43,178 nucleotides of DNA from an uncultured Bifidobacteriaceae bacterium (GCA_964502775.1 CAZCYE010000003.1:1-43178), one strand, 5' to 3'. Positions 3,606-31,513 are shown, counted from the first letter of the stretch. Notes: generated by a model from the sequence alone, not told the origin. A program made the numbers and translations.

Positions 3606-4190
3606 CTATGCAACCTGGGCCCGGTGGCTCCGGAGGTTGGGGATGCGCCGAGTGATCGTCATGAGCAGCCTGGCGACCCAGGTTCCGGTCTGGACGTGGA
3701 TCACGAGGAACGCCCCCAGCACGATCAGGACGTCGCCGATCGAGTACACGTTGGCCAGCGGGAGCCACGACGGTACAGCGAAGATGTCGCCGAGGAATGC
3801 GACGCTCGCGTCGTTGAGTGCAGTGGAGTTCTCGAACCCGTGGCCCACCGAGATGCCCGCCGCGCTCAGGGCCGAGCGGGACGCCGGCATCACGCCGTCG
3901 TTGGCGGCGATCGCCACGAGGTTCAGCACCCCACCGGCGAGCATCGTGAACCGCCACGGAATGCCCGAGTTGGCGAGGAGCCAGCCCAGCACCAGCACGT
4001 AGGTCGTCATGTGCAGTCCACGGGCGATCGAGCTGTCGCCGGCCACGATCGAGATGATCACGACCTGCACCACGAGCGCGCCCAGGACCACGCCCGTGCC
4101 GCGGAGCCGGATCTCGCCCAGGCGCCGCAGCCGGCCCCCCGTGAGGGGGACGCTGGCCAGCGCGACGCCGACGAGCAGGACCATTAGCAT
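3606..4190 (-). CDS. DUF5317-family polytopic membrane protein
   Basis: The 194-aa product has about 5 hydrophobic helices. The motifs ANDGVMPAS..LSAAGIS, FLGDIF and VYSIGDVLIVLG match my recollection of the DUF5317 signature (NGGxMPV...LGD...SIGD). The SD GGGAG lies 5 nt upstream of ATG 4190. Confidence 0.72.
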   Translation of the reverse strand: MLMVLLVGVALASVPLTGGRLRRLGEIRLRGTGVVLGALVVQVVIISIVAGDSSIARGLHMTTYVLVLGWLLANSGIPWRFTMLAGGVLNLVAIAANDGVMPASRSALSAAGISVGHGFENSTALNDASVAFLGDIFAVPSWLPLANVYSIGDVLIVLGAFLVIHVQTGTWVARLLMTITRRIPNLRSHRAQVA

Positions 4191-4404
4191 CAGGGCTCCC
4201 GGGAGGAATGGTTCGTGGGCTCCTTGGACACCGTTGTCGGCAATCGCTTGCGGGCCCTTGAGCGTGCCGCCGTCCCGTGGGCGTTTCGCGCAGGATGTCC
4301 GATTTGCTCGAGCTCCCCGAATCCCCCTTCAGCGGGCTCGGCTCGGCGCCGATACCTCCGGTCTGCGCCCGAATGGGCGCACAGAGCACCAGAGGAGCAG
4401 TTGG

Positions 4405-4494
4405 ATGAGAGCTCGTCTTCTGCGCATCAGCGTTGCCGCCGCCACGCTCGTCTCTCTCGTCGCCGTTCTCGGCGCCGGGATCAAGTGGCGCTGA
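4405..4494 (+). CDS. candidate 29-aa membrane micro-protein (MRARLLRISVAAATLVSLVAVLGAGIKWR)
   Basis: Below the size cut-off of the ORF track. ATG 4405 is preceded by AGGAG with a 7-nt spacer. The peptide has a basic N-terminus, an 18-residue hydrophobic core, GAG and a basic C-terminus. It lies 110 nt upstream of the GGDEF-EAL gene and is collinear, with the same length, with a second ORF at 25623..25712. Confidence 0.35.
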   Translation: MRARLLRISVAAATLVSLVAVLGAGIKWR

Positions 4495-4603
4495 CGACCA
4501 TTCGTGAGGGGGCCGTTCCGGGGCGAGAGCCTCGGGGCGGCCTCCTTTCTTTTTCACGGTCGGCGTTCTCACCGCGGGCTCGTTCCCATGGGGGGCGGCA
4601 TCC

Positions 4604-6643
4604 ATGACGGCCGAGGCCGGGACCGGCCGGGCGAGGCTGCTGCACGGCTACCTGACAGCGGTCATCGTCGTCGGCTTGGCCGACATCGCGGTCGCGGTGA
4701 GGTTCGAGGGTCCGGTCGTCCCTGACAGCAACGTCGGCCGCTACGCGGTCTTCGCGGCCATCATCGTGATCGGCGAGCTGTTCCCGGTGACCTTCAAGTT
4801 CCGCAACGAGCACCACGACGTCACCACGTCCACATCGTTCGCGTTCGCGGTGCTCCTGATGTTCGGCCTTGCCCCCACGTTGCTGGCGCAGTCGATCGCC
4901 TCGATCGCCTCTGACGTGCGCCAACGCAAGACATGGTGGCGGGCGTTGTTCAACGTGTCCCAGTACGCCTTGGCCTGGACGGCATGCTGGGCAGTGCTGC
5001 GAGTGAGCGGGGTCACCCGCTTCGACACGGCCGAGTCGTTCACGAGCGACGGGGCCGTGGGGCTCGTGGCGGCGGCGGTGGTCTTCATGGTCGTGAACTA
5101 CGTCTTCGTTGCGATCGCCGTTGCCCTCGCCCAGCGCTACGTCGTCGCCAGGAATTTCGTCTCGAGTGCTCGGATCGATCTGGCCATCTCGGCGGTGTTG
5201 TTCGCCATGGCGCCGGTCGTGGTGATCATCGGGGAGCAGAATCTCGCGCTCGTCCCCTTGTTGCTCGCGCCGCTCGCCGCCGTCTACCAGAGCGCCCGTA
5301 CCTCGATGGAGAAGCTGCATCAGTCCATGCACGACTCGCTCACCAACCTCCCCAACCGTCTCTACTTCGAGGAGCGCGTGCGGCAGGCGATTGACGAGCG
5401 GCCGGATGCAAAGCTCGATGTGTTGATCGTGAATATCGACAGCTTCTCAGAGATCAACAACACGTTGGGCCATCACGTGGGTGACATTCTCATCGTCCAG
5501 GTCGCCGATCGTCTCCGGAGTGCAGTGCCCGGCGACGCCGTGGTCTCACGCCTGGGCAGCGATGAGTACGCGATCTCGTTGCCGGCCGGCTCCGGTCACG
5601 ACGCGCGTGGCCTTGCCGACCTCATCCAGCGCTCGCTCGAGGCGCCGTTCGTGCTCGACGAGGTCACCTTCGAGGTGGGTGCGAGCATCGGGTCCGCCTC
5701 GTACCCCCTTCACGGGAACGACGTGGACACGTTGATCCGGCGAGCGGATTCGGCCATGTACGAAGCCAAGGAACGCCGGAGCGGCTTCGAGTGGTTCCGC
5801 CCCGAGCGAGACCACCGCGACGCCCGGCGCCTGACCGTGCTCGCCGAGCTGCGCCAAGGCATCGACGAAGGCCAGCTCGTCCTGCACTTCCAGCCCAAGG
5901 CCGAGTTGCCGACCGGGCGTATCCTCGGGGCCGAGGCGCTCGTGCGCTGGAACCATCCCGCGCTCGGTCTCCTCGGCCCGGACTCCTTCGTGCCCCTTGC
6001 CGAGCCCACGGGTCTCATCAACTCCTTGACGTTGCACGTGCTGGAGCAGGCACTGGAACAGTGCCACCGGTGGTCCGACGAGAAGCGGGATCTGCGGGTG
6101 TCGGTGAACGTGTCCGTGCGCAACCTGTACGACGAGCGGTTCGTGTTCGACGTCGACAGGATCCTCGAGCGCACGGGTGTCGATCCCAGTCGCCTCACGC
6201 TCGAGATCACTGAGAGCACGATGATGGCCGATCCGACGCGCCCGATCGCGGCGCTGGCGCAACTCAGTCTCCGAGGAGTCCAGATCGCCGTCGACGACTT
6301 CGGCACCGGATACTCGTCGCTCGCATACCTGCGCCGGCTCCCGGTGACCGAGATCAAGATCGACAAGTCGTTCGTGCTCGGCATGCTGGATTCGCCCGAC
6401 GACGCCACGATCGTCCGCTCGACGATCGATCTCGTACGCAACCTTGGGCTCATCGCGGTGGCCGAAGGCGTGGAGCGCGAGGAGGTCTGGAACGCGCTGA
6501 TCGAGCTGGGCTGTCACCGCGCCCAGGGCCACTACCTCACTCGGCCGCTCGCCGCCGATGCGTTCACGCACTGGCTCGATCGCTACGACCCGCGGGCGCC
6601 CGGTCGGCAGGCGCCCGCGTCGCGGGGGCTGCGCGCGGTCTGA
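4604..6643 (+). CDS. membrane-bound GGDEF(degenerate)-EAL protein, probable c-di-GMP phosphodiesterase
   Basis: The N-terminal ~235 aa are polytopic. The GGDEF domain (DSLTNLPNR, GHHVGD) has GSDEY in place of GGDEF. The EAL domain carries EALVRW, NVS, EITE, DDFGTGYSSL, KIDKSF, AEGVE and AQG. Confidence 0.9.
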   Translation: MTAEAGTGRARLLHGYLTAVIVVGLADIAVAVRFEGPVVPDSNVGRYAVFAAIIVIGELFPVTFKFRNEHHDVTTSTSFAFAVLLMFGLAPTLLAQSIASIASDVRQRKTWWRALFNVSQYALAWTACWAVLRVSGVTRFDTAESFTSDGAVGLVAAAVVFMVVNYVFVAIAVALAQRYVVARNFVSSARIDLAISAVLFAMAPVVVIIGEQNLALVPLLLAPLAAVYQSARTSMEKLHQSMHDSLTNLPNRLYFEERVRQAIDERPDAKLDVLIVNIDSFSEINNTLGHHVGDILIVQVADRLRSAVPGDAVVSRLGSDEYAISLPAGSGHDARGLADLIQRSLEAPFVLDEVTFEVGASIGSASYPLHGNDVDTLIRRADSAMYEAKERRSGFEWFRPERDHRDARRLTVLAELRQGIDEGQLVLHFQPKAELPTGRILGAEALVRWNHPALGLLGPDSFVPLAEPTGLINSLTLHVLEQALEQCHRWSDEKRDLRVSVNVSVRNLYDERFVFDVDRILERTGVDPSRLTLEITESTMMADPTRPIAALAQLSLRGVQIAVDDFGTGYSSLAYLRRLPVTEIKIDKSFVLGMLDSPDDATIVRSTIDLVRNLGLIAVAEGVEREEVWNALIELGCHRAQGHYLTRPLAADAFTHWLDRYDPRAPGRQAPASRGLRAV

Positions 6644-24611: not shown

Positions 24612-25292
24612 TCAGCGCGGCTTGCGTTCCGTGAGGAAGGCGAGACGGCGGTTGGTCGCGTCCAGCACGGCGCGAGCAGCTGCGGTCTCGGGTGACTGGA
24701 GCACGAGTGCGGAGCCGACGAGGCGCTGCTCCATCGGCGGATCGATCCACACGAGGGAGACGATCACGACATCTTGGCTGCCGATTCGGACAAGTTCGAC
24801 GGCCTCGAGGTCAAATCCAACTGCAGCCGATTCGAGTTGGCACAACGCGTCGAGCGCAGCCGAGGCGACGAGCCGGGGCCGAGCGCCAGAGGCAGCCGAG
24901 CCTTCGGCAAAGCCGGTGACCTCGTGCTCGCCGAGCGCGAGTGATACACGCATCGCGACCCGGGTTCCCTGAGCATGGGATTGCACCGAAGAGATGGCGG
25001 GCCGGGCCACGGCACTCGGCGCCTCACTCGCGGGGTCCGACCCGTTGTTCGCGAGTTGGACGACAGAGACGATGCGACGATCGAACTCGAGGCCGAACGA
25101 CGCCAGCGCGACCGATTGGATGTCACGCACGACCTGCTTGGGGTGTTTTCCCATGCGCGCCAGCACGTGCACTTCCACGGGGCGGGACAGCGAGTCGGCG
25201 ACGATGCGGCAGGCGACGATCTCGGGGAGGCGGCAGATCTCAGCTTCAACGGACGGCAGATCGAACGCCGCTTCGATTTCCGGGTCGGGCAT
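24612..25292 (-). CDS. hypothetical protein, apparently two tandem alpha/beta domains
   Basis: A strong SD (AGGAGGA, 8-nt spacer) precedes ATG 25292, third-position G+C is high, and it is the first gene of the GT4 operon. No family recognised. Confidence 0.6.
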   Translation of the reverse strand: MPDPEIEAAFDLPSVEAEICRLPEIVACRIVADSLSRPVEVHVLARMGKHPKQVVRDIQSVALASFGLEFDRRIVSVVQLANNGSDPASEAPSAVARPAISSVQSHAQGTRVAMRVSLALGEHEVTGFAEGSAASGARPRLVASAALDALCQLESAAVGFDLEAVELVRIGSQDVVIVSLVWIDPPMEQRLVGSALVLQSPETAAARAVLDATNRRLAFLTERKPR

Positions 25293-25622
25293 CCCGAAGA
25301 TCCTCCTGCGCTAATGGGCGCCATCGGGGCAATTGGAGGATACGGAACCCTGCCGCCCGTGACGAGGATACCTTCGCGCGGACAGTGGTGCCGTGGCTAC
25401 ATTCGGGCTTGCGAACTCGCCCGGTATCCACGAGACTTGCGTGGCTGAAGTGACGGTAGCGAAGCCAACGTGACCAATGTTGCCAGGGAGGTGAGCGAAG
25501 GAAGAGGACGGATCGGGCAGGGCCTCGGATGAATTGGGGCTGAAGAGCCTTGAAGCGGAGCGTCACCTCTCCGGCCTCTAGCGGAGCCGGCGGGAGTTCC
25601 TCACGATTGGGGGGGATTCACT

Positions 25623-25712
25623 GTGAAGAAGGTGATTGCCCGTCTCGCGCTTATCGGGTCAAGCATCGCTGCGATCGTTCTCGCCGGTGGTGCTGGCAAG
25701 GGACTGCGCTAG
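25623..25712 (+). CDS. candidate 29-aa membrane micro-protein (MKKVIARLALIGSSIAAIVLAGGAGKGLR)
   Basis: Below the track cut-off. GTG 25623 is preceded by GGGGGGA with a 6-nt spacer. It has the same length and architecture as ORF 4405..4494 and lies 66 nt upstream of the HD-GYP-like gene. Confidence 0.35.
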   Translation: MKKVIARLALIGSSIAAIVLAGGAGKGLR

Positions 25713-25777
25713 TAGTTCACATCCTGACGAAATGCTCTGAGGTCCTGCCCGCTCCGTCCTCTACTTCCCGAGATGTG

Positions 25778-27097
25778 ATGTTGGGCCTGTCTCGCTTCCG
25801 GGCGTATTGCTTCACCATCGGTACTGCCGCGTGTGCTCTGGGCACGTGCCTCGGAGTGTTCGGGCCCATGCCTGTGCTCGAGCCGATTCTTGTACTAGGC
25901 GTGCTCTTCGCAGTCGCCGAGAACAGCAGCGTCGAGCTACCGAATCGTTCAAGTCTCAGCGCAAGTCTCATGCTGGGCATGGCAGCGGTAGTTGTTTTCA
26001 GCGATGAAGCAGCAGTTCTCGGTCCGCTGTTCGTCGGAATGTTTGGGTGTGCCTATCTACCTCAGATCCGGAATCGGCAGTGGGCCAAGGTCTTCTTCAA
26101 CCTTGGAAACTTCGGCCTCTCAACCGCTGCGGCGGCACTTGTCTTTGCCGGAGTGCCTGTTCAGGTCGACGATTCGATCGGACTGCAGTTGCTCGCATCG
26201 ATTGCGGCAGCGTTAACCTTTGCAACGGTCAACTCTCTCCTTCTCGTTCCTGCCGTTTCGATCCTGACAGGCAAGGGGAAGCGCGCCGTCCTTCAAGAGA
26301 TGTGGGTGAGCGACGCGCAGATTCTGCCCTTCGCGTTCTTGGGAGCCGTACTCGGTCGTCTCTACGTCGACATTGGTGCGCTCATCGTTCCGCTCATCGT
26401 CGTTCCGATCTTCATCGCGCGTCAGGCGTTCGCCTCGTACCTCGAATTGCGTGCCGCGCACGAAGCCACGCTCTCGACGCTCGTGCTCGCACTCGAGTCG
26501 AAGGACCGTTACACGGCCGGGCACGTCGAGCGCGTCGCCAACTTCTCCCACCAAATCGGCCTCGAGTTGGGACTGCGGCCCGGTCGACTCGAGCGGCTCC
26601 GCCAGGCGGCCCTGATGCACGACATCGGCAAGCTCATCGTGCCCAACCAACTGCTCAACAAGCCCGGTCGGCTCACACCGTCGGAGTACGAGCGCATCCG
26701 AGCGCACGAGCACGTCTCGGTGGAGCTGATGCGCCGCATCGACTTCCTCGCTCCGCTTGCGCCGAGCATCGCGGCCGAGCAGGACCATGAGCCGGAGACC
26801 CCGCTCGAGAGTCGGATCATCCACGTCGCCGATGCGTTCGACGCCATGACGTCCACTCGGTCGTACCGTCGGGCGCTCACGCAGGAGGTCGCGATAGCGG
26901 AGCTCCGCGCGAAGTCCGGTACCCAGTTCGACCTCGAGTGTGCCGAGGCGCTGATCCGGGTGATCGAGCGCTCGGGTGTCCGCTATGGCGATGGCCATGA
27001 GGAGTCCCGGGCCGACTTCTCGGTGCCGCCGCCGGTCGTGGGTACCGGCTCGGCCGGATTGGGCGACCTGGAGGGGCAAGACGAGGTCCGGTCGTGA
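25778..27097 (+). CDS. polytopic membrane protein with a C-terminal HD-GYP-family domain lacking the GYP loop
   Basis: Track ORF 25550..27097 is trimmed to ATG 25778, which lies downstream of the small ORF. The HD domain shows TAGHVERVA, LMHDIGKL, RAHEHV and IIHVADAFDAMTSTRSYR. The HHExxDGxGYP segment is replaced by the shorter QDHEPETPLESR. Confidence 0.8.
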   Translation: MLGLSRFRAYCFTIGTAACALGTCLGVFGPMPVLEPILVLGVLFAVAENSSVELPNRSSLSASLMLGMAAVVVFSDEAAVLGPLFVGMFGCAYLPQIRNRQWAKVFFNLGNFGLSTAAAALVFAGVPVQVDDSIGLQLLASIAAALTFATVNSLLLVPAVSILTGKGKRAVLQEMWVSDAQILPFAFLGAVLGRLYVDIGALIVPLIVVPIFIARQAFASYLELRAAHEATLSTLVLALESKDRYTAGHVERVANFSHQIGLELGLRPGRLERLRQAALMHDIGKLIVPNQLLNKPGRLTPSEYERIRAHEHVSVELMRRIDFLAPLAPSIAAEQDHEPETPLESRIIHVADAFDAMTSTRSYRRALTQEVAIAELRAKSGTQFDLECAEALIRVIERSGVRYGDGHEESRADFSVPPPVVGTGSAGLGDLEGQDEVRS

Positions 27098-28269
27098 ACC
27101 GCCCGATGCGCTTCCTGGCAATCTTCGGCGTGGCGCTCGGCGCCGCAGCCGTCGCCGCGCTCGCGGATGCCCCCGCGCATGCGGTCGATCTGGTGGTGTT
27201 GGGCGGCGCGCTCGTGGCATCGGAGCAGCTGGAGCTGCGACCGACCGGCCGAGCGGCGCTCCCGTTGTCCTTCGCTTTGGTGGTGGTGCTGGTGCGGGCG
27301 GCTACTCCCGGCGAGTTCGTCGTGATCGTGGGTGTCGGCCTGGCCGTGGCAATGCTGCTCCGACCAGGCTCGTACAGTGAGCGAGGACTGCTGTGGTGCG
27401 AGCGCCTGGCCGAGGGGCTGGGTGCAGGCGCGGTGTACCGACTGATCGCCGAGTCGTTCGGTAGCCAGCACTCGGAGGCCAGGGTGCTGGCCGCGCTCGC
27501 CGGCGCCGCGGTCACCCAGATCGTGGTGGCGGACCTCGTGGTGCTCGCGCGGGAGCACCGGTTGGCTCCCGTCCGAGCCCGGGGCGCCGATCTCGCCCTG
27601 GTCACGAGCGGCATGTTGATGGCCGTGGGCTACGGGGGCATCGGTGGCAGTGGCCGCCTCGGGCTCTGGGGGCCCTTGCTGTTCTCGATCCCGCTGCTCG
27701 CGGCGTGGTACTCGTTCGAGTTGCTCGAGCGCACGCGCCGAAGCTTCCGCCAGACGGTGCGCGCGTTGGGCGTCGCACCAGAGCTCGGTGGATTGGTGCG
27801 GCCGGGACACGTCGAGCGCGTGGCTCAACTCGCCGTCGACATGGGTCAGCACGTCGGTCTGTCGTTCGTCCAGCTCACCGATCTCGAGACCGCGGCCTGG
27901 TTGCATCACCTCGGTGCGGTGTGCCTTGACGAGCCCGCCGAGGGAGAGCAGCACGACCCGCGGGAGGTCGCCCGAGCGGGAGCATCCATGCTCCGTGCCA
28001 GTGAGGCACTCGCAGCGGCAGGGGAGGTGGTTGCCGCCGAACCGCTGTTGCACCGGATGGCACCCGGGATCGGGCCGTCGTCGTCAGCTGCACTTGCCGG
28101 GCAGATCCTCAAGGTCGCAAGCGCGTACGACGAGCTGACCGAAGGCGATCACGCCCATGCCGCGTGGGCCGTGGAGGCGCTGTACACCGGCCCCGGCTAC
28201 GTCTACGACGGGCGCGTGCTGGGCGCACTCGAGCGCGCACTCACCGCGCGCGGTTGGCTCACTGACTGA
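27094..28269 (+). CDS. paralogous polytopic membrane protein with a degenerate HD-type domain (HD replaced by HH)
   Basis: GTG 27094 overlaps the upstream stop. It has the same N-terminal membrane architecture. PGHVERVAQLAVDMG is retained, but MHDIGK is replaced by LHHLGA and there is no GYP. Confidence 0.7.
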   Translation: MNRPMRFLAIFGVALGAAAVAALADAPAHAVDLVVLGGALVASEQLELRPTGRAALPLSFALVVVLVRAATPGEFVVIVGVGLAVAMLLRPGSYSERGLLWCERLAEGLGAGAVYRLIAESFGSQHSEARVLAALAGAAVTQIVVADLVVLAREHRLAPVRARGADLALVTSGMLMAVGYGGIGGSGRLGLWGPLLFSIPLLAAWYSFELLERTRRSFRQTVRALGVAPELGGLVRPGHVERVAQLAVDMGQHVGLSFVQLTDLETAAWLHHLGAVCLDEPAEGEQHDPREVARAGASMLRASEALAAAGEVVAAEPLLHRMAPGIGPSSSAALAGQILKVASAYDELTEGDHAHAAWAVEALYTGPGYVYDGRVLGALERALTARGWLTD

Positions 28270-28813
28270 CCGCGCGCCGACTCTTGGTGCGCCGGCTCTG
28301 GAAGTACGCGAGCTCGCACACGCCGACGCCCAGGACCAGGTCGCCGAACGAGATCAACATGTCGAAGGGCTCCGGTAGGAGGATCTTGTCGCCGAGGATG
28401 CCGAGCAGGTCCTCCTCGCTCGCCTGACGGTGCTTGACCGTCTGCTCCACCGGCTTGCGGATCCGGTTGCCCTGCGCGTCGTTGCCGATCGGCTTGGTGG
28501 GCATTCCCTGGTTGAGCCCGATCACCAGCGCGTTCATCGCGATTCCGATGGCGATGATCCCGAAGCCTCGTGCGAAGACGTTGGCCAGGCAGAAGGCGAG
28601 GATCAGGGCGTACGACGCCATCAGCGCGGCAAAGCCGATGGTCTCGATCTGATCTTTGGGGATGTCGACGTATTCGAGGGCGATCTGGATGCCAAAGCCG
28701 ACGAGGAGCATCCAAGGTGCCATCACCCGCACGCGAGCCAGTCGGGCGAAGCTTCCACGCGTCAGGATCACGACGAGAGCGGCCGCCGCGATCGTGAAGA
28801 CGAACAGCCACAC
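28259..28813 (-). CDS. DUF5317-family polytopic membrane protein (second copy)
   Basis: GTG start. The N-terminus WLFVFTIAAAALVVILTRGSFARLARVRV parallels that of the 3606..4190 product. Motifs are LNQGMPTKP, ILGDKIL and ISFGDLVLGVG. Its 3' end overlaps the convergent gene by 11 nt. Confidence 0.68.
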   Translation of the reverse strand: MWLFVFTIAAAALVVILTRGSFARLARVRVMAPWMLLVGFGIQIALEYVDIPKDQIETIGFAALMASYALILAFCLANVFARGFGIIAIGIAMNALVIGLNQGMPTKPIGNDAQGNRIRKPVEQTVKHRQASEEDLLGILGDKILLPEPFDMLISFGDLVLGVGVCELAYFQSRRTKSRRAVSQ

Positions 28814-29018
28814 GCCATGACGCTAGCGATCGGCGGCCTCGGCGGGATGGACTGATCGTCCTGCTCGGTCCGCGAGCTCCGGCCGAGACTCTTCGCGGCC
28901 GTCTTCGTGACGTGTTTCGTGGTGGCTATTTCTTCCCGATCCCCGTAGACAGGATCGAACCGCGTGGTTATGTTCGCCGGGCCGGGGATCCCGGGCGGGA
29001 AGTCGGAGAGGCGGGACC

Positions 29019-29735
29019 ATGGGGATGCCGAGCAGTACCCCGAATCATGACCGCGACGAGTTCGCGCTCTTGATTGCTCACTATCGAGACGATGCCTACC
29101 GGTTGGCTCGGCGCCTGGTGAGAAGCGACGCCGAGGCCGAGGATCTCACCCAGACCGCGGTGTTGAACACCTTGCGGCGCGCTGAGCACATTCAGAGCGC
29201 GGGTCACGTGAAGGCGTACCTGCTCACGACCGTTCGCAACCTCTGGCGGAACCACCTGCGCGCCCAGAGTCGCCGCCGGTTCGTGAGTTCGGACACGGTC
29301 GAGCAGTTCCCGTCGGGCGACATTGGACCGGAGGAGCAGGCACTCACTGCCCTCGATGCGGCGCTGGCGGGCATTGCGTTTCGATCTCTCTCGGACACCA
29401 GTCGCGAGGTGATTCGGCTCCGCTACCTCGAGGGCTTGGGGTTCTCGGAGCTTGCTGACCAACTCGGGATCTCGCCGGTCGCGGCCCGTCAGCGGGCCCA
29501 TCGCGCCCGCGAGGAGCTCGTGGGCGCATGCATCGATTTCGCCGCCCGGGAGGGAAGCGGTGCGTGTGCGTGGGTGCGCGAGCGCTTCGGGCGGTACTTC
29601 CGTGGCCGGCTGACCCAGCCGACTCGAGCCCGCGTCGAGGGGCACTTGACGCGCTGTGCAGAGTGTCGCAACGGATACGACGACCTTGTGGATCTCTACG
29701 GCCGCCGCTTCTCGCGACTCAAGGGTGAAGCGTGA
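29019..29735 (+). CDS. ECF sigma-70 factor with a C-terminally fused zinc-binding anti-sigma (ZAS, HxxxCxxC) segment
   Basis: Region 2 is DLTQTAVLNTLR..VKAYLLTTVRNLWRNHLR. Region 4 is REVIRLRYLEGLGFSELADQLGISPVAARQRAHRAREEL. The same frame then reads GACAWVRERF...VEGHLTRCAECRNGY. Confidence 0.85.
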   Translation: MGMPSSTPNHDRDEFALLIAHYRDDAYRLARRLVRSDAEAEDLTQTAVLNTLRRAEHIQSAGHVKAYLLTTVRNLWRNHLRAQSRRRFVSSDTVEQFPSGDIGPEEQALTALDAALAGIAFRSLSDTSREVIRLRYLEGLGFSELADQLGISPVAARQRAHRAREELVGACIDFAAREGSGACAWVRERFGRYFRGRLTQPTRARVEGHLTRCAECRNGYDDLVDLYGRRFSRLKGEA

Positions 29736-31279
29736 AGGATTGCACGCTCCCAGTTGGAGTCATTTCGGTGATGCCGACTCGGGCAGAGCCCCGCAAGCTC
29801 CGGATCACTTCACTGGTCCTGGCTGCCTTCCTGATCTTGGCCCCGGTGCTCATGGCACTCGCTGGAACGCCAGTGGAGCTCAATTGGACGGCAGGAGTCC
29901 TTCTGTTTCTCTCTTTCGTCGCTGCCCAGAAGGACGCCGTCTTCAGCGACGAGACAGCTATTAGCGAGAGCATCCTTGTTGCACACGCGGCCGTTGGCGT
30001 TGCGGTGGGAACTGGTCAGTTGCTTATCGCGTTCTCATGTGGATTGCTCGGCGGTGTGCACTTGTCACATATCCGCGAACGGTCCCTGACGAAGATCGTG
30101 ATCAATGCTGGTGCGATCGGCCTATCTGCATTGGCGGCTGGAGCGATCGCTTACGGATTGGGAGGTGCTAGTCCAAATAGCCTCCGTATGCTCTACTCGG
30201 GTGCTGTAGCGACATGTGTGTTCTGGGTTCTCAACAATTCGATTATTGGTTTCGCCATCTCTGCTGCGCAAGGTAGGGGTGCCCCGAGAACAATCGCAGG
30301 GCTCATCAGGTCAGAAGCAGAGATGCTCGTGTTCGCGTTCCTGGGCTTCCTGACCGGATACCTGTTCGTCGAGGTGGGGACCTGGGCCGGGACCATCGGT
30401 CTGGTCGCCCTCCTCGTGCTGGTCGATGTCGCGGTCATCCGTCGACCGCCTCACATTCCGAAGCGACGGTTCTTCGCGAGTGTGGCGCAGGTCGCGCTGG
30501 CGGGCGTGGTGGTCGTCGCTGCCATCGTGAGTGCGGTGGTCGAGACGTTCCCCGATCGGTGGGGCTTCGTGGCCTTGCTCGGTGCCATGGCGACCGCCGC
30601 GGTGGTGATGTCCCGCCTGCCGGTGGTGCCCGGCGCGCTGCCTTCGACGCTCGCGATCGTGTTGGCCGGTGCCGTGTTCGGCGCCGAAGCGCCGATCGCT
30701 GCTCCACTCACCGCTGGCGTGACGATGGGAATCGTCGCGTGTGTGCTCGGCCGGCGGCGGTCGATACTCGCCGCGAGCTCCGAGTTGGCCGCTGCCGGCT
30801 GCGGCGGGCTCGCTGCTGGGATCGTGTTCCTGGAGCTTCCGCTGCGGGAGACGAGTTCCCTCCCCACGTTCATTGGCGTCGTGCTCGCAGCGGGCGTGGC
30901 AGTCGTCGGCGCGCGCCACCTCTTCCTCGGCGCGATGTTGACGGCTCGTCTCGGGAGGGAGGCACGTCGCGTCGCACTCGAGTTGAGCGCCGCGGACATC
31001 CCGAGCATCGCGGTGACGGCCGTGGGTGGAGTCCTCGCCTGGTGGGCGGTTCGCGATGGCATCGAGGGGTCGCTCCTGGTGGTGCTCGCCGTCGCTGCGG
31101 TCGCGTTCGGGGTCTACCGACTCGGTCGTACCCGTTGGGACCCACGAACGGGCATCCTGATCGAGGACGACCCCGTGGATCCCGAAGAGCTGTTGACGGC
31201 ACTGCGGAGCACGGTGCTGGATTGTCGTCCGGTTCGAGTGCGTGAGCCGACGCTGGAGTTGCCGACTCGTACACAGTGA
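29732..31279 (+). CDS. large polytopic membrane protein with two copies of the shared sensor-like membrane module and no recognisable soluble output domain
   Basis: GTG 29732 overlaps the sigma stop (GTGA). Alternative starts are GTG 29768 and ATG 29771, after GGAG. There are 12 or more hydrophobic helices, and module signatures occur near AAQKDAVFSDETAISESIL and FLELPLRETSSLPTFIGVVL. Confidence 0.7.
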   Translation: MKDCTLPVGVISVMPTRAEPRKLRITSLVLAAFLILAPVLMALAGTPVELNWTAGVLLFLSFVAAQKDAVFSDETAISESILVAHAAVGVAVGTGQLLIAFSCGLLGGVHLSHIRERSLTKIVINAGAIGLSALAAGAIAYGLGGASPNSLRMLYSGAVATCVFWVLNNSIIGFAISAAQGRGAPRTIAGLIRSEAEMLVFAFLGFLTGYLFVEVGTWAGTIGLVALLVLVDVAVIRRPPHIPKRRFFASVAQVALAGVVVVAAIVSAVVETFPDRWGFVALLGAMATAAVVMSRLPVVPGALPSTLAIVLAGAVFGAEAPIAAPLTAGVTMGIVACVLGRRRSILAASSELAAAGCGGLAAGIVFLELPLRETSSLPTFIGVVLAAGVAVVGARHLFLGAMLTARLGREARRVALELSAADIPSIAVTAVGGVLAWWAVRDGIEGSLLVVLAVAAVAFGVYRLGRTRWDPRTGILIEDDPVDPEELLTALRSTVLDCRPVRVREPTLELPTRTQ

Positions 31280-31294
31280 GTACGCTCGGCGGCC

Positions 31295-31513
31295 GTGTTC
31301 GAGCTCCGTGCGATGGTGACGGCGAGCGTGCGCGAGATCATCGTCGATGAGGGTCAACTCGTCGCCGAAGGTGACGAGATCGCGATCCTGGAGGCGGCGA
31401 CCGGCGAGGTCGTGGTCGTCACCGAGATCCCCGGCGTCGTCCGAGAGCTGCATGTCGAACCGGGTGACATGGTCGATCCGGGCACCCTGATTGCCCTGAT
31501 CGACGAGGCGTGA
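31295..31513 (+). CDS. small biotinyl/lipoyl-domain (BCCP-like) protein lacking the modifiable lysine
   Basis: The 72-aa product is ASVREIIVDEGQLVAEGDEIAILEAATGEVVVVTEIPGVVRELHVEPGDMVDPGTLIALI. This follows the biotinyl-domain pattern, but EAMKME is replaced by EAATGE. Confidence 0.7.
   Translation: MFELRAMVTASVREIIVDEGQLVAEGDEIAILEAATGEVVVVTEIPGVVRELHVEPGDMVDPGTLIALIDEA

Follow-up and report, generated by a model that had tools for sequence, protein, structure and literature searches.

MASE9 (Pfam PF20972) was defined by Galperin & Chou (bioRxiv 10.1101/2021.11.05.467447), whose MASE9 passages describe a polytopic N-terminal sensor domain paired with HD-GYP or GGDEF-EAL outputs, T. maritima TM1467 and S. 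venezuelae HdgA being among the examples. According to the same passages (10.1101/2021.11.05.467447), eight transmembrane segments are predicted for the domain, and a short pair among them makes an intramembrane hairpin; the helices contain polar and charged residues, and an unknown ligand is proposed to bind within the membrane. The second described system of relevance is the fusion of an extracytoplasmic function (ECF) sigma factor to a zinc-binding anti-sigma (ZAS) domain, known from groups ECF48, ECF52 and ECF53 and from SCO4117 (PMC8999054). In these three groups the chain continues into one or two transmembrane helices and an outer domain, and activation is thought to be proteolytic (PMC8999054). 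Here we analyze a 43-kb contig (CAZCYE010000003.1, positions 1-43178; G+C ~69%), hereafter the window, which holds two paralogous triads, each made up of a micropeptide, a MASE9 protein and a DUF5317 membrane protein. Locus A spans 3606-6643 and locus B spans 25623-31513, where the triad (25623-28813) is followed by genes for a sigma-ZAS fusion, a 515-aa polytopic protein and a biotinyl-domain protein (Table 1).

Like published MASE9 proteins, those of the window include a polytopic N-terminal module fused to HD-GYP-like or GGDEF-EAL domains. Unlike them, they are accompanied by DUF5317 and a micropeptide, the MASE9 passages of the preprint mentioning no accessory genes. Further differences are that MASE9 is found here also in histidine kinases, as a free-standing double module coupled to sigma-ZAS and as a triple module in a homolog, P0122, and that HHE and GYP are missing from the local HD-GYP-like domain. 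Because MASE9 has been published with HD-GYP and with GGDEF-EAL domains, the recurring membrane module and two of its architectures were already known, as was the idea of a sigma-anti-sigma fusion. An earlier note on this DNA, which knew of no characterised counterpart for the genes of locus B, was mistaken as far as the module is concerned. The literature searched yielded no account of a DUF5317-micropeptide partnership, of its spread across phyla or of MASE9 in an anti-sigma role, and no mention of DUF5317 or PF17248.

Gene neighbourhoods of DUF5317

A scan with a DUF5317 alignment, taking one genome per species, gave 63 loci; labels such as L055 denote loci from other genomes in this analysis. 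Neighbourhoods were mapped using phmmer or hidden Markov models (HMMs) made from window domains, with Pfam used for distant loci. As the search patterns came from the locus B DUF5317 protein, the sample is skewed to relatives of the window, and the counts given below are not family-wide frequencies. The nearest relatives of the window are metagenome-assembled genomes (MAGs) of Acidimicrobiia, and identical pieces of the window were found in two public runs.

About 30 Acidimicrobiia genomes keep the peptide, the HD-GYP-like gene, the degenerate-HD gene and the convergent DUF5317 gene of locus B, the first of the HD genes being lost in some. Relatives of the locus A DUF5317 protein always adjoin a GGDEF-EAL protein of ~690 aa whose N-terminus matches the MASE9 HMM, the genes being either divergent or on the same strand with an overlap. 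The full locus A trio of genes is also present in L070-L075, and counterparts of its micropeptide were found in L070, L071 and L074. Other loci have other outputs. DUF5317 lies near MASE9-HisKA_3 kinases in L055 and L060, near a MASE9-GAF-PAS kinase in L067 (MASE9, 35.3 bits), and near GGDEF or GGDEF-EAL proteins in L059 and L063; in L069, from Desulfitobacterium, a canonical MASE9-HD-GYP gene overlaps that of DUF5317 on the same strand. In Actinomycetota and in one Desulfitobacterium, MASE9 has DUF5317 and the micropeptide beside it regardless of whether the output is HD-GYP, GGDEF-EAL or a histidine kinase, an association that appears to be undescribed. Homologies, gene order and their conservation across lineages are direct observations from these comparisons.

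The peptide gene is still found beside that of DUF5317 in loci that have no MASE9 genes, namely L009, L026 (where it overlaps the DUF5317 stop) and L031. Because the two stay together where MASE9 is gone, the conserved core looks like DUF5317 plus peptide, and a MASE9 protein of variable output looks like the usual third member. The earlier note had located the seven genes of locus B, their overlaps and a second triad at 3.6-6.6 kb, all of which are present. Co-localisation of peptide, module and DUF5317 is kept in other genomes and phyla; the core appears to be the peptide and DUF5317, the MASE9 protein being the part that varies.

The micropeptide

The locus B micropeptide has a basic N-terminus, one predicted transmembrane helix, the residues G-G-A and then a five-residue tail. 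Neither window micropeptide has a family match in Pfam or NCBIfam. A peptide HMM detected the open reading frame (ORF) at the expected place in 26 other genomes. Among 16 distinct orthologous genes, the mean pairwise differences at codon positions 1, 2 and 3 were 8.45, 3.42 and 14.21, respectively, a hallmark of translation.

The same design, 24-35 aa long, recurs throughout: a basic N-terminus, one hydrophobic helix, the motif G-(G/A)-(A/G/P), and a final three to six residues that are often aromatic or basic. It was found in every type of locus, i.e., in relatives of locus A (L070, L071, L074), beside the GAF-PAS kinase (L067), beside the HisKA_3 kinases (L055 and L060, in both of which the peptide ORF is on the strand opposite the kinases) and in the Desulfitobacterium locus (L069). 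Among Acidimicrobiia orthologs, the most conserved part of the peptide is the transmembrane core, GSS...LAGGA, which suggests helix packing. In Actinoplanes, two to four tandem paralogs of 28-36 aa lie directly 3' of the DUF5317 gene and end in ...LALLLYTVGAPHxSxG. Tandem ORFs of this sort in Actinoplanes and Paractinoplanes occur at L059 (7580-7994) and in L061-L066 and L068 (e.g., L062 7648-7889, L064 2913-3215); their pattern, MTRTLSWQRLVLAAxTLATLALLLYTVGAPH(L/I)STG, persists even where no signalling gene is adjacent.

The locus B peptide gene is preceded by a conserved leader of ~140 nt, whose core reads, in order, GGACGGAGCGGGCAGGGCCUCGG, a UGAAGA hairpin, AAGCGRAGCGUCACCUC, GCCGGCGGGAGUUCC and GGGGGGAUUC. 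A predicted hairpin at the 3' end of the leader could sequester or cover the G-rich ribosome-binding site. Rfam gave no match to the leader or to the window as a whole. RNAalifold found almost no structure in a MAFFT alignment of the leader; in a subset it found a plausible structure in which 81.9% of cells pair, versus 40-49% in slid controls. Double-sided changes were no commoner than in those controls, so that the structure of the leader is not established.

Divergent from the leader lies a gene for a 226-aa protein that has no Pfam family (24612-25292, minus strand). It is syntenic in relatives, where its product is 225-231 aa long, and sits beside a glycosyltransferase gene. In genomes without the HD genes it lies near the DUF5317 gene (e.g., at ~0.7 kb in L009), with the peptide gene in between.

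The DUF5317 protein

Both window copies of DUF5317 score above the Pfam gathering cutoff of 25 bits for PF17248, and they share 26% identity (BLASTP E 1.2e-7). An AlphaFold2 (AF2) model of the protein (mean predicted local distance difference test score, pLDDT, 85; predicted TM-score, pTM, 0.77) has five long helices, predicted to span the membrane, and a conserved beta-rich segment, beginning at residue 102 or 104 and ending at 155, that precedes the last helix. The family-invariant residues N101, M104, P105, D142, P147, P149, S155, G157 and D158 cluster in this segment. Judged by the positive-inside rule, the beta-rich loop is probably extracytoplasmic, and the C-terminal tail of the peptide would face outward as the loop does.

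Because L-x-D and S-x-G-D are invariant in DUF5317, an intramembrane aspartyl protease of the presenilin/FlaK/prepilin peptidase kind was considered; the idea is unsupported, Foldseek having found no match in the PDB. One DUF5317 clade (L032-L047, L052 and L056; e.g., L039 4711-5508) carries a cytoplasmic C-terminal extension of ~90 aa with the motif DDTLGVELDQVYARLA, and its genes are flanked by an enoyl-CoA hydratase gene on one side and a glycosyltransferase gene on the other.

MASE9 modules of the window

With the Pfam gathering cutoff for MASE9 at 24.3 bits, the HD-GYP-like protein of locus B scored above it (26.0 bits) and the EAL protein of locus A just below it (22.9 bits), while the 515-aa protein and the degenerate-HD paralog gave no Pfam MASE9 match. 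BLASTP aligned the N-terminus of the HD-GYP-like protein over 157 aa with the N half of the 515-aa protein (29% identity, E 9e-14). Profiles built from orthologs and family members were then compared by hhalign in local mode. The MASE9 region of the HD-GYP-like protein matched the N half of the 515-aa protein at a probability of 100% (E 8e-54), the N-terminus of the EAL protein at 97.5%, the C half of the 515-aa protein at 96.0% (E 4e-9) and the N-terminus of the degenerate-HD paralog at 90.2% (E 1.5e-6), and the two halves of the 515-aa protein matched each other at 92.1%. Controls, consisting of reversed profiles and DUF5317, reached 5.4% at most. The earlier note had listed a lack of conserved co-localisation and a lack of profile-profile similarity as outcomes that would tell against it; neither came true, and its view that the N-terminal membrane regions are homologous agrees with these comparisons.

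The presence of MASE9 is confirmed by these matches for the HD-GYP-like protein, the GGDEF-EAL protein and the N half of the 515-aa protein. The 515-aa protein as a whole is probably two MASE9 copies, the C half being the more divergent. In its AF2 model (pLDDT 80, pTM 0.67), the series of helix lengths is nearly equal in both halves. Each half of the model has two short helices, of 16 and 11 residues in the N half and 14 and 17 in the C half, where those of the hairpin would be expected. One metagenomic homolog has a second half that the MASE9 query hits directly. A divergent MASE9 probably also makes up the N-terminus of the degenerate-HD paralog; for this and for the two-copy architecture the evidence is weaker than for the other modules. 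Among the homologs of the 515-aa protein is P0122 (823 aa), which has three tandem MASE9-like modules and no recognisable output domain, and which shows that free-standing multi-MASE9 proteins extend beyond the double version of the window.

Outputs of the two loci

The two HD proteins of locus B are paralogs (26% identity over 205 aa, BLASTP E 2e-7), and the orthologous pair is conserved in relatives. Alignment to solved HD-GYP proteins indicated that the first keeps the H, HD, H and D residues. The HD metal-binding motif is present in it as MHDIGK, and in the paralog HD is changed to HH. The HHE motif, which is the second metal site, is replaced by EQD/DHE and is absent from all Acidimicrobiia orthologs. 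Likewise common to all these orthologs is an 11-residue deletion, relative to V-cGAP3 (5Z7C), that takes out the GYP loop of the first protein. The tyrosine of the GYP motif contacts cyclic di-GMP (c-di-GMP). Both HHE and GYP are kept in L069 and L057.

With HHE and GYP both missing, c-di-GMP phosphodiesterase activity of the locus B HD-GYP-like domain is doubtful. As judged from their sequences, neither HD protein of the locus has the motifs that define an HD-GYP phosphodiesterase, a caution against annotating them as c-di-GMP phosphodiesterases. The conserved, coupled pair may instead be a heterodimeric regulator or may act on another substrate. The MASE9-GGDEF-EAL protein of locus A has a degenerate GGDEF motif (GSDEY) and, read from its sequence, an intact EAL motif set, making it likely to be a c-di-GMP phosphodiesterase.

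A sigma-ZAS fusion and a probable split anti-sigma factor

The zinc motif of the sigma-ZAS protein is C-x25-H-x3-C-x2-C. The chain ends 21 residues past CxxC and has no transmembrane segment, and NCBIfam returned generic ECF matches only. The 515-aa protein encoded by the overlapping gene starts at Met14 in the public gene call, which gives 502 aa; homologous loci with the same 4-nt sigma overlap make the 515-aa start plausible. At its C-terminus the AF2 model places a conserved, predicted cytoplasmic helix (484-497). A word-indexed search with this protein matched only the protein itself, and it took exhaustive HMMER searches to find the family, which has ~90 representatives of ~500 or ~390 aa, one of them with three modules.

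A single ORF encoding sigma and ZAS, followed by an overlapping MASE9-type ORF, was found at 21 genome loci, in L005 and L006, and in 9 of 10 metagenome loci. Wherever the flank reaches, in genome and metagenome loci alike, a DUF5317 gene lies one or two genes upstream of sigma-ZAS. The 515-aa protein probably supplies the membrane half of an anti-sigma factor split in two. L003 had suggested that relatives have a canonical ZAS-MASE9 anti-sigma factor; this was rejected, since at 21 loci a single ORF holds both sigma and ZAS. At three exceptions, two of them from the same MAG, ZAS is in another frame that overlaps sigma (L003/L008 6328-6651, L012 5224-5898). The exceptions are long-read MAG contigs, and L012 has several fragmented genes besides; the frame differences in L003/L008 and L012 probably reflect frameshifts introduced in assembly, with the genes themselves not split.

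A sigma70-like promoter, TAGACA-N17-TATGTT (28946-28974, plus strand), lies 45 nt 5' of the sigma start and is conserved in orthologs. An ECF-type autoregulatory promoter was looked for upstream of the sigma gene and not found. As the conserved element is sigma70-like, not ECF-type, no regulon link is drawn from it, and the sigma gene seems to be read by the housekeeping sigma factor and not only by its own product.

The earlier note suggested that one membrane module feeds both c-di-GMP turnover and an ECF sigma factor. The sigma part gains from the finding of the same module beside a sigma/anti-sigma pair at ~30 loci. The turnover part is doubtful for the HD pair (25778-28269), HHE and GYP being deleted across the locus B lineage; only the EAL protein of locus A looks catalytically intact.

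The biotin carboxyl carrier-like gene

Downstream of the 515-aa protein is a gene for a protein resembling biotin carboxyl carrier protein (BCCP), in which EAATGE stands in place of ESMKME and the biotinyl Lys is gone; it scores 54.9 bits with NF004547, versus a cutoff of 75. Most relatives keep ESMKME and have a Carboxyl_trans neighbour. Loss of the Lys was seen only in the window and in L026, L048, L050, L051 and L054, the gene lying ~60-550 nt from the cluster. The gene is probably a remnant of an acyl-CoA carboxylase operon and not a signalling part, and its inclusion in the 6-kb unit of the earlier note does not hold for relatives, whose version retains the Lys and adjoins a carboxyltransferase gene. 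Conservation of the remainder of the Lys-less biotinyl domain hints at a role independent of biotin.

Table 1 Features of loci A and B and of the adjoining genes in the window
Feature	Position	Strand	Evidence
Second DUF5317 paralog (locus A)	3606-4190	-	Pfam 77.1 bits
Second 29-aa micropeptide, MRARLLRISVAAATLVSLVAVLGAGIKWR	4405-4494	+	Peptide HMM E 1.3e-9; GAGGAG ribosome-binding site
MASE9-GGDEF-EAL protein, 679 aa	4604-6643	+	EAL 243.9, GGDEF 125.2, MASE9 22.9 bits
Conserved 5' leader, candidate cis-regulatory RNA	25482-25622	+	Nucleotide conservation in >20 orthologous loci
29-aa micropeptide, MKKVIARLALIGSSIAAIVLAGGAGKGLR	25623-25712	+	GTG start, G-rich ribosome-binding site
MASE9 + HD-GYP-family protein, 439 aa	25778-27097	+	Pfam MASE9 26.0 bits, HD_5 80.5 bits
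Degenerate-HD paralog, 391 aa	27094-28269	+	HD_5 19.9 bits, below cutoff; GTGA overlap with upstream gene
DUF5317 membrane protein (locus B)	28259-28813	-	Pfam PF17248 74.0 bits; convergent, 11-nt overlap with 27094-28269
ECF sigma fused to ZAS motif, 238 aa	29019-29735	+	Sigma70_r2 55.8, Sigma70_r4_2 42.7, zf-HC2 36.8 bits
Probable double-MASE9 polytopic protein, 515 aa	29732-31279	+	hhalign; GTGA overlap with sigma gene
Lys-less biotinyl/lipoyl-domain protein, 72 aa	31295-31513	+	Biotin_lipoyl 39.6 bits

Discussion

The gene neighbourhoods make it somewhat probable, in our estimation, that DUF5317 and the micropeptide serve MASE9 as membrane co-sensors and determine its state, and that MASE9 in turn drives varied outputs. 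The two would assemble in the membrane into an accessory or co-sensor complex, on which the signalling state of the neighbouring MASE9 domain would depend; MASE9 would then drive whichever output is fused or coupled to it. At locus A this output would be the EAL phosphodiesterase; at locus B it would be the HD-derived pair, whose probable role is regulation as a heterodimer or hydrolysis of a substrate other than c-di-GMP. The ZAS domain fused to the ECF sigma factor would auto-inhibit it in cis, with the coupled double-MASE9 protein controlling its release. Physical interaction between the partners, their topology, the direction of signal flow and the reading of the same signal by the sigma module are what we infer from the conserved gene order.

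Several points weigh against this proposal. Every functional link in it rests on gene neighbourhood, and the neighbourhoods come from a sample whose search patterns favoured the window's relatives and in which most positive loci fall in one syntenic lineage. The tailed DUF5317 clade (~18 Acidimicrobiia genomes) has no peptide or MASE9 gene within 7 kb, and several Actinoplanes DUF5317 loci lack a signalling neighbour, so that the partnership is not obligatory. Foldseek found no match for the DUF5317 model in the PDB at E<=1e-3 (best E 3.4, TM-score 0.15), and a fold search with the double-MASE9 AF2 model gave nothing usable (best E 0.3, TM-scores <=0.19). Only one or two of the other MASE9 profiles match well with the C half of the 515-aa protein, and the same is true of the degenerate-HD N-terminus. 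The remaining points concern the sigma branch: the sigma pair was seen in Acidimicrobiia only, and in most relatives an enoyl-CoA hydratase gene stands between the DUF5317 and sigma genes.

These last observations raise the alternative that sigma-ZAS and the double-MASE9 protein form a self-contained module with its own signal (e.g., thiol or redox, via the ZAS zinc) and make no use of DUF5317 or the peptide. ZAS domains, as in RsrA and related proteins, can sense redox changes by themselves, and the sigma gene has its own conserved sigma70-type promoter. The intervening enoyl-CoA hydratase gene argues against the 6 kb of locus B being one unit, as the earlier note had it, and leaves the coupling of sigma to the triad to be inferred from the shared module and from persistent proximity in one lineage, where the adjacency could be inherited synteny. 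We nevertheless regard a self-contained module as rather unlikely, although well worth keeping in view: the membrane partner is built from the MASE9 module of its neighbours, DUF5317 lies within one or two genes upstream wherever the flank is available, and elsewhere DUF5317 and the peptide accompany MASE9 whatever the output.

An Agr-like pheromone circuit would assign other roles to the same parts. The micropeptide would be a precursor resembling a signal peptide with a tiny C-terminal cargo, DUF5317 would process or export it by means of the conserved outer loop, and the released tail of three to six residues, or the cleaved helix, would be the MASE9 ligand. The peptides can be divided into n-, h- and c-regions, small residues (G-G-A, G-A-G, G-A-P) preceding a short and often aromatic or basic tail (SRIWR, IKWR, FKWW, RWKA, CYRI); they have no conserved Cys, however, and a basic tail on the presumed outer side is awkward for this scheme. 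Among Acidimicrobiia the peptide core is more conserved than the tail, the reverse of what is expected of a mere export signal, whereas the two to four tandem peptide genes of Actinoplanes have a layout typical of pheromone or bacteriocin precursors. In size and kind the parts follow the Agr plan, with a membrane protein of ~185 aa, a small peptide and a polytopic receptor that is sometimes a histidine kinase, and DUF5317 has invariant Asp, Asn and Ser residues in or next to its predicted outer loop; yet neither AgrB nor any peptidase or exporter in the PDB resembles it in sequence or fold, DUF5317 being its only Pfam family. Taking these points together, we judge a pheromone circuit distinctly unlikely.

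A broader claim, to which we give slightly less credence still, is that DUF5317, micropeptide and MASE9 make up an unrecognised peptide-based system of cell-cell or envelope signalling, widespread in Gram-positive lineages, in which DUF5317 matures or exports the peptide and MASE9 is its intramembrane receptor. If this were true, MASE9 would couple a peptide to c-di-GMP enzymes, to kinases or to a split ECF anti-sigma factor, and the ligand class of a MASE-type domain would have been identified.

It is very improbable that the small ORFs arose by chance in a regulatory leader or act in cis as leader peptides, with DUF5317 an unrelated membrane housekeeping protein kept by synteny. In favour of this reading, the locus B ORF lies where a strongly conserved, possibly structured leader ends, many positive loci belong to one syntenic lineage, and one DUF5317 clade is free-standing. 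Against it, the amino-acid pattern of the peptide is kept between phyla despite differing DNA and leaders, and third codon positions vary most. The ORF is moreover found opposite in strand to the kinases of L055 and L060, in tandem copies 3' of DUF5317 in Actinoplanes, and beside DUF5317 where there is no downstream MASE9 gene.

MASE-type sensors are common in c-di-GMP enzymes and kinases, and the signals they sense are largely unknown; the conserved accessory pair beside MASE9, DUF5317 and the micropeptide, offers concrete candidates for this input. The neighbourhoods also provide the first genomic context assigned to DUF5317. The micropeptide, whose ~30 residues are mostly missed by routine annotation, adds to the families of conserved bacterial micropeptides. 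As for the sigma factor, the window presents a new layout of ECF control, in which ZAS is fused to sigma and a MASE9 membrane partner is encoded separately.

Three kinds of known system invite comparison. Small membrane proteins that modulate sensors are exemplified by MgrB and SafA, both acting on PhoQ. Like these, though by analogy only, the micropeptide would be a single-pass protein (~30-50 aa) whose gene lies close to a membrane sensor gene or belongs to the sensor's regulon, and it could act through helix-helix contact. Unlike them, it has a third partner, DUF5317, and the sensor is MASE9 and not a PhoQ-type kinase; there is no sequence relationship between the two sets of peptides. The analogy with Agr (AgrB/AgrD/AgrC) would lie in the adjacency of a polytopic protein of ~190 aa, a peptide gene and a polytopic receptor, and in the multiplication of peptide genes. 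Pfam, Foldseek and the peptide alignments show the differences, there being no homology or fold match to AgrB and no conserved Cys for a thiolactone, and the outputs of MASE9 are mostly c-di-GMP-type domains or an anti-sigma factor. Lastly, the sigma-ZAS protein resembles ECF48, ECF52 and ECF53 in being an actinobacterial ECF sigma factor with a C-terminal ZAS extension, which suggests inhibition in cis. It differs in having no membrane part of its own, the place of which is taken by a separate, translationally coupled double-MASE9 protein. The split, MASE9-based system is a variant of the known sigma-ZAS fusions.

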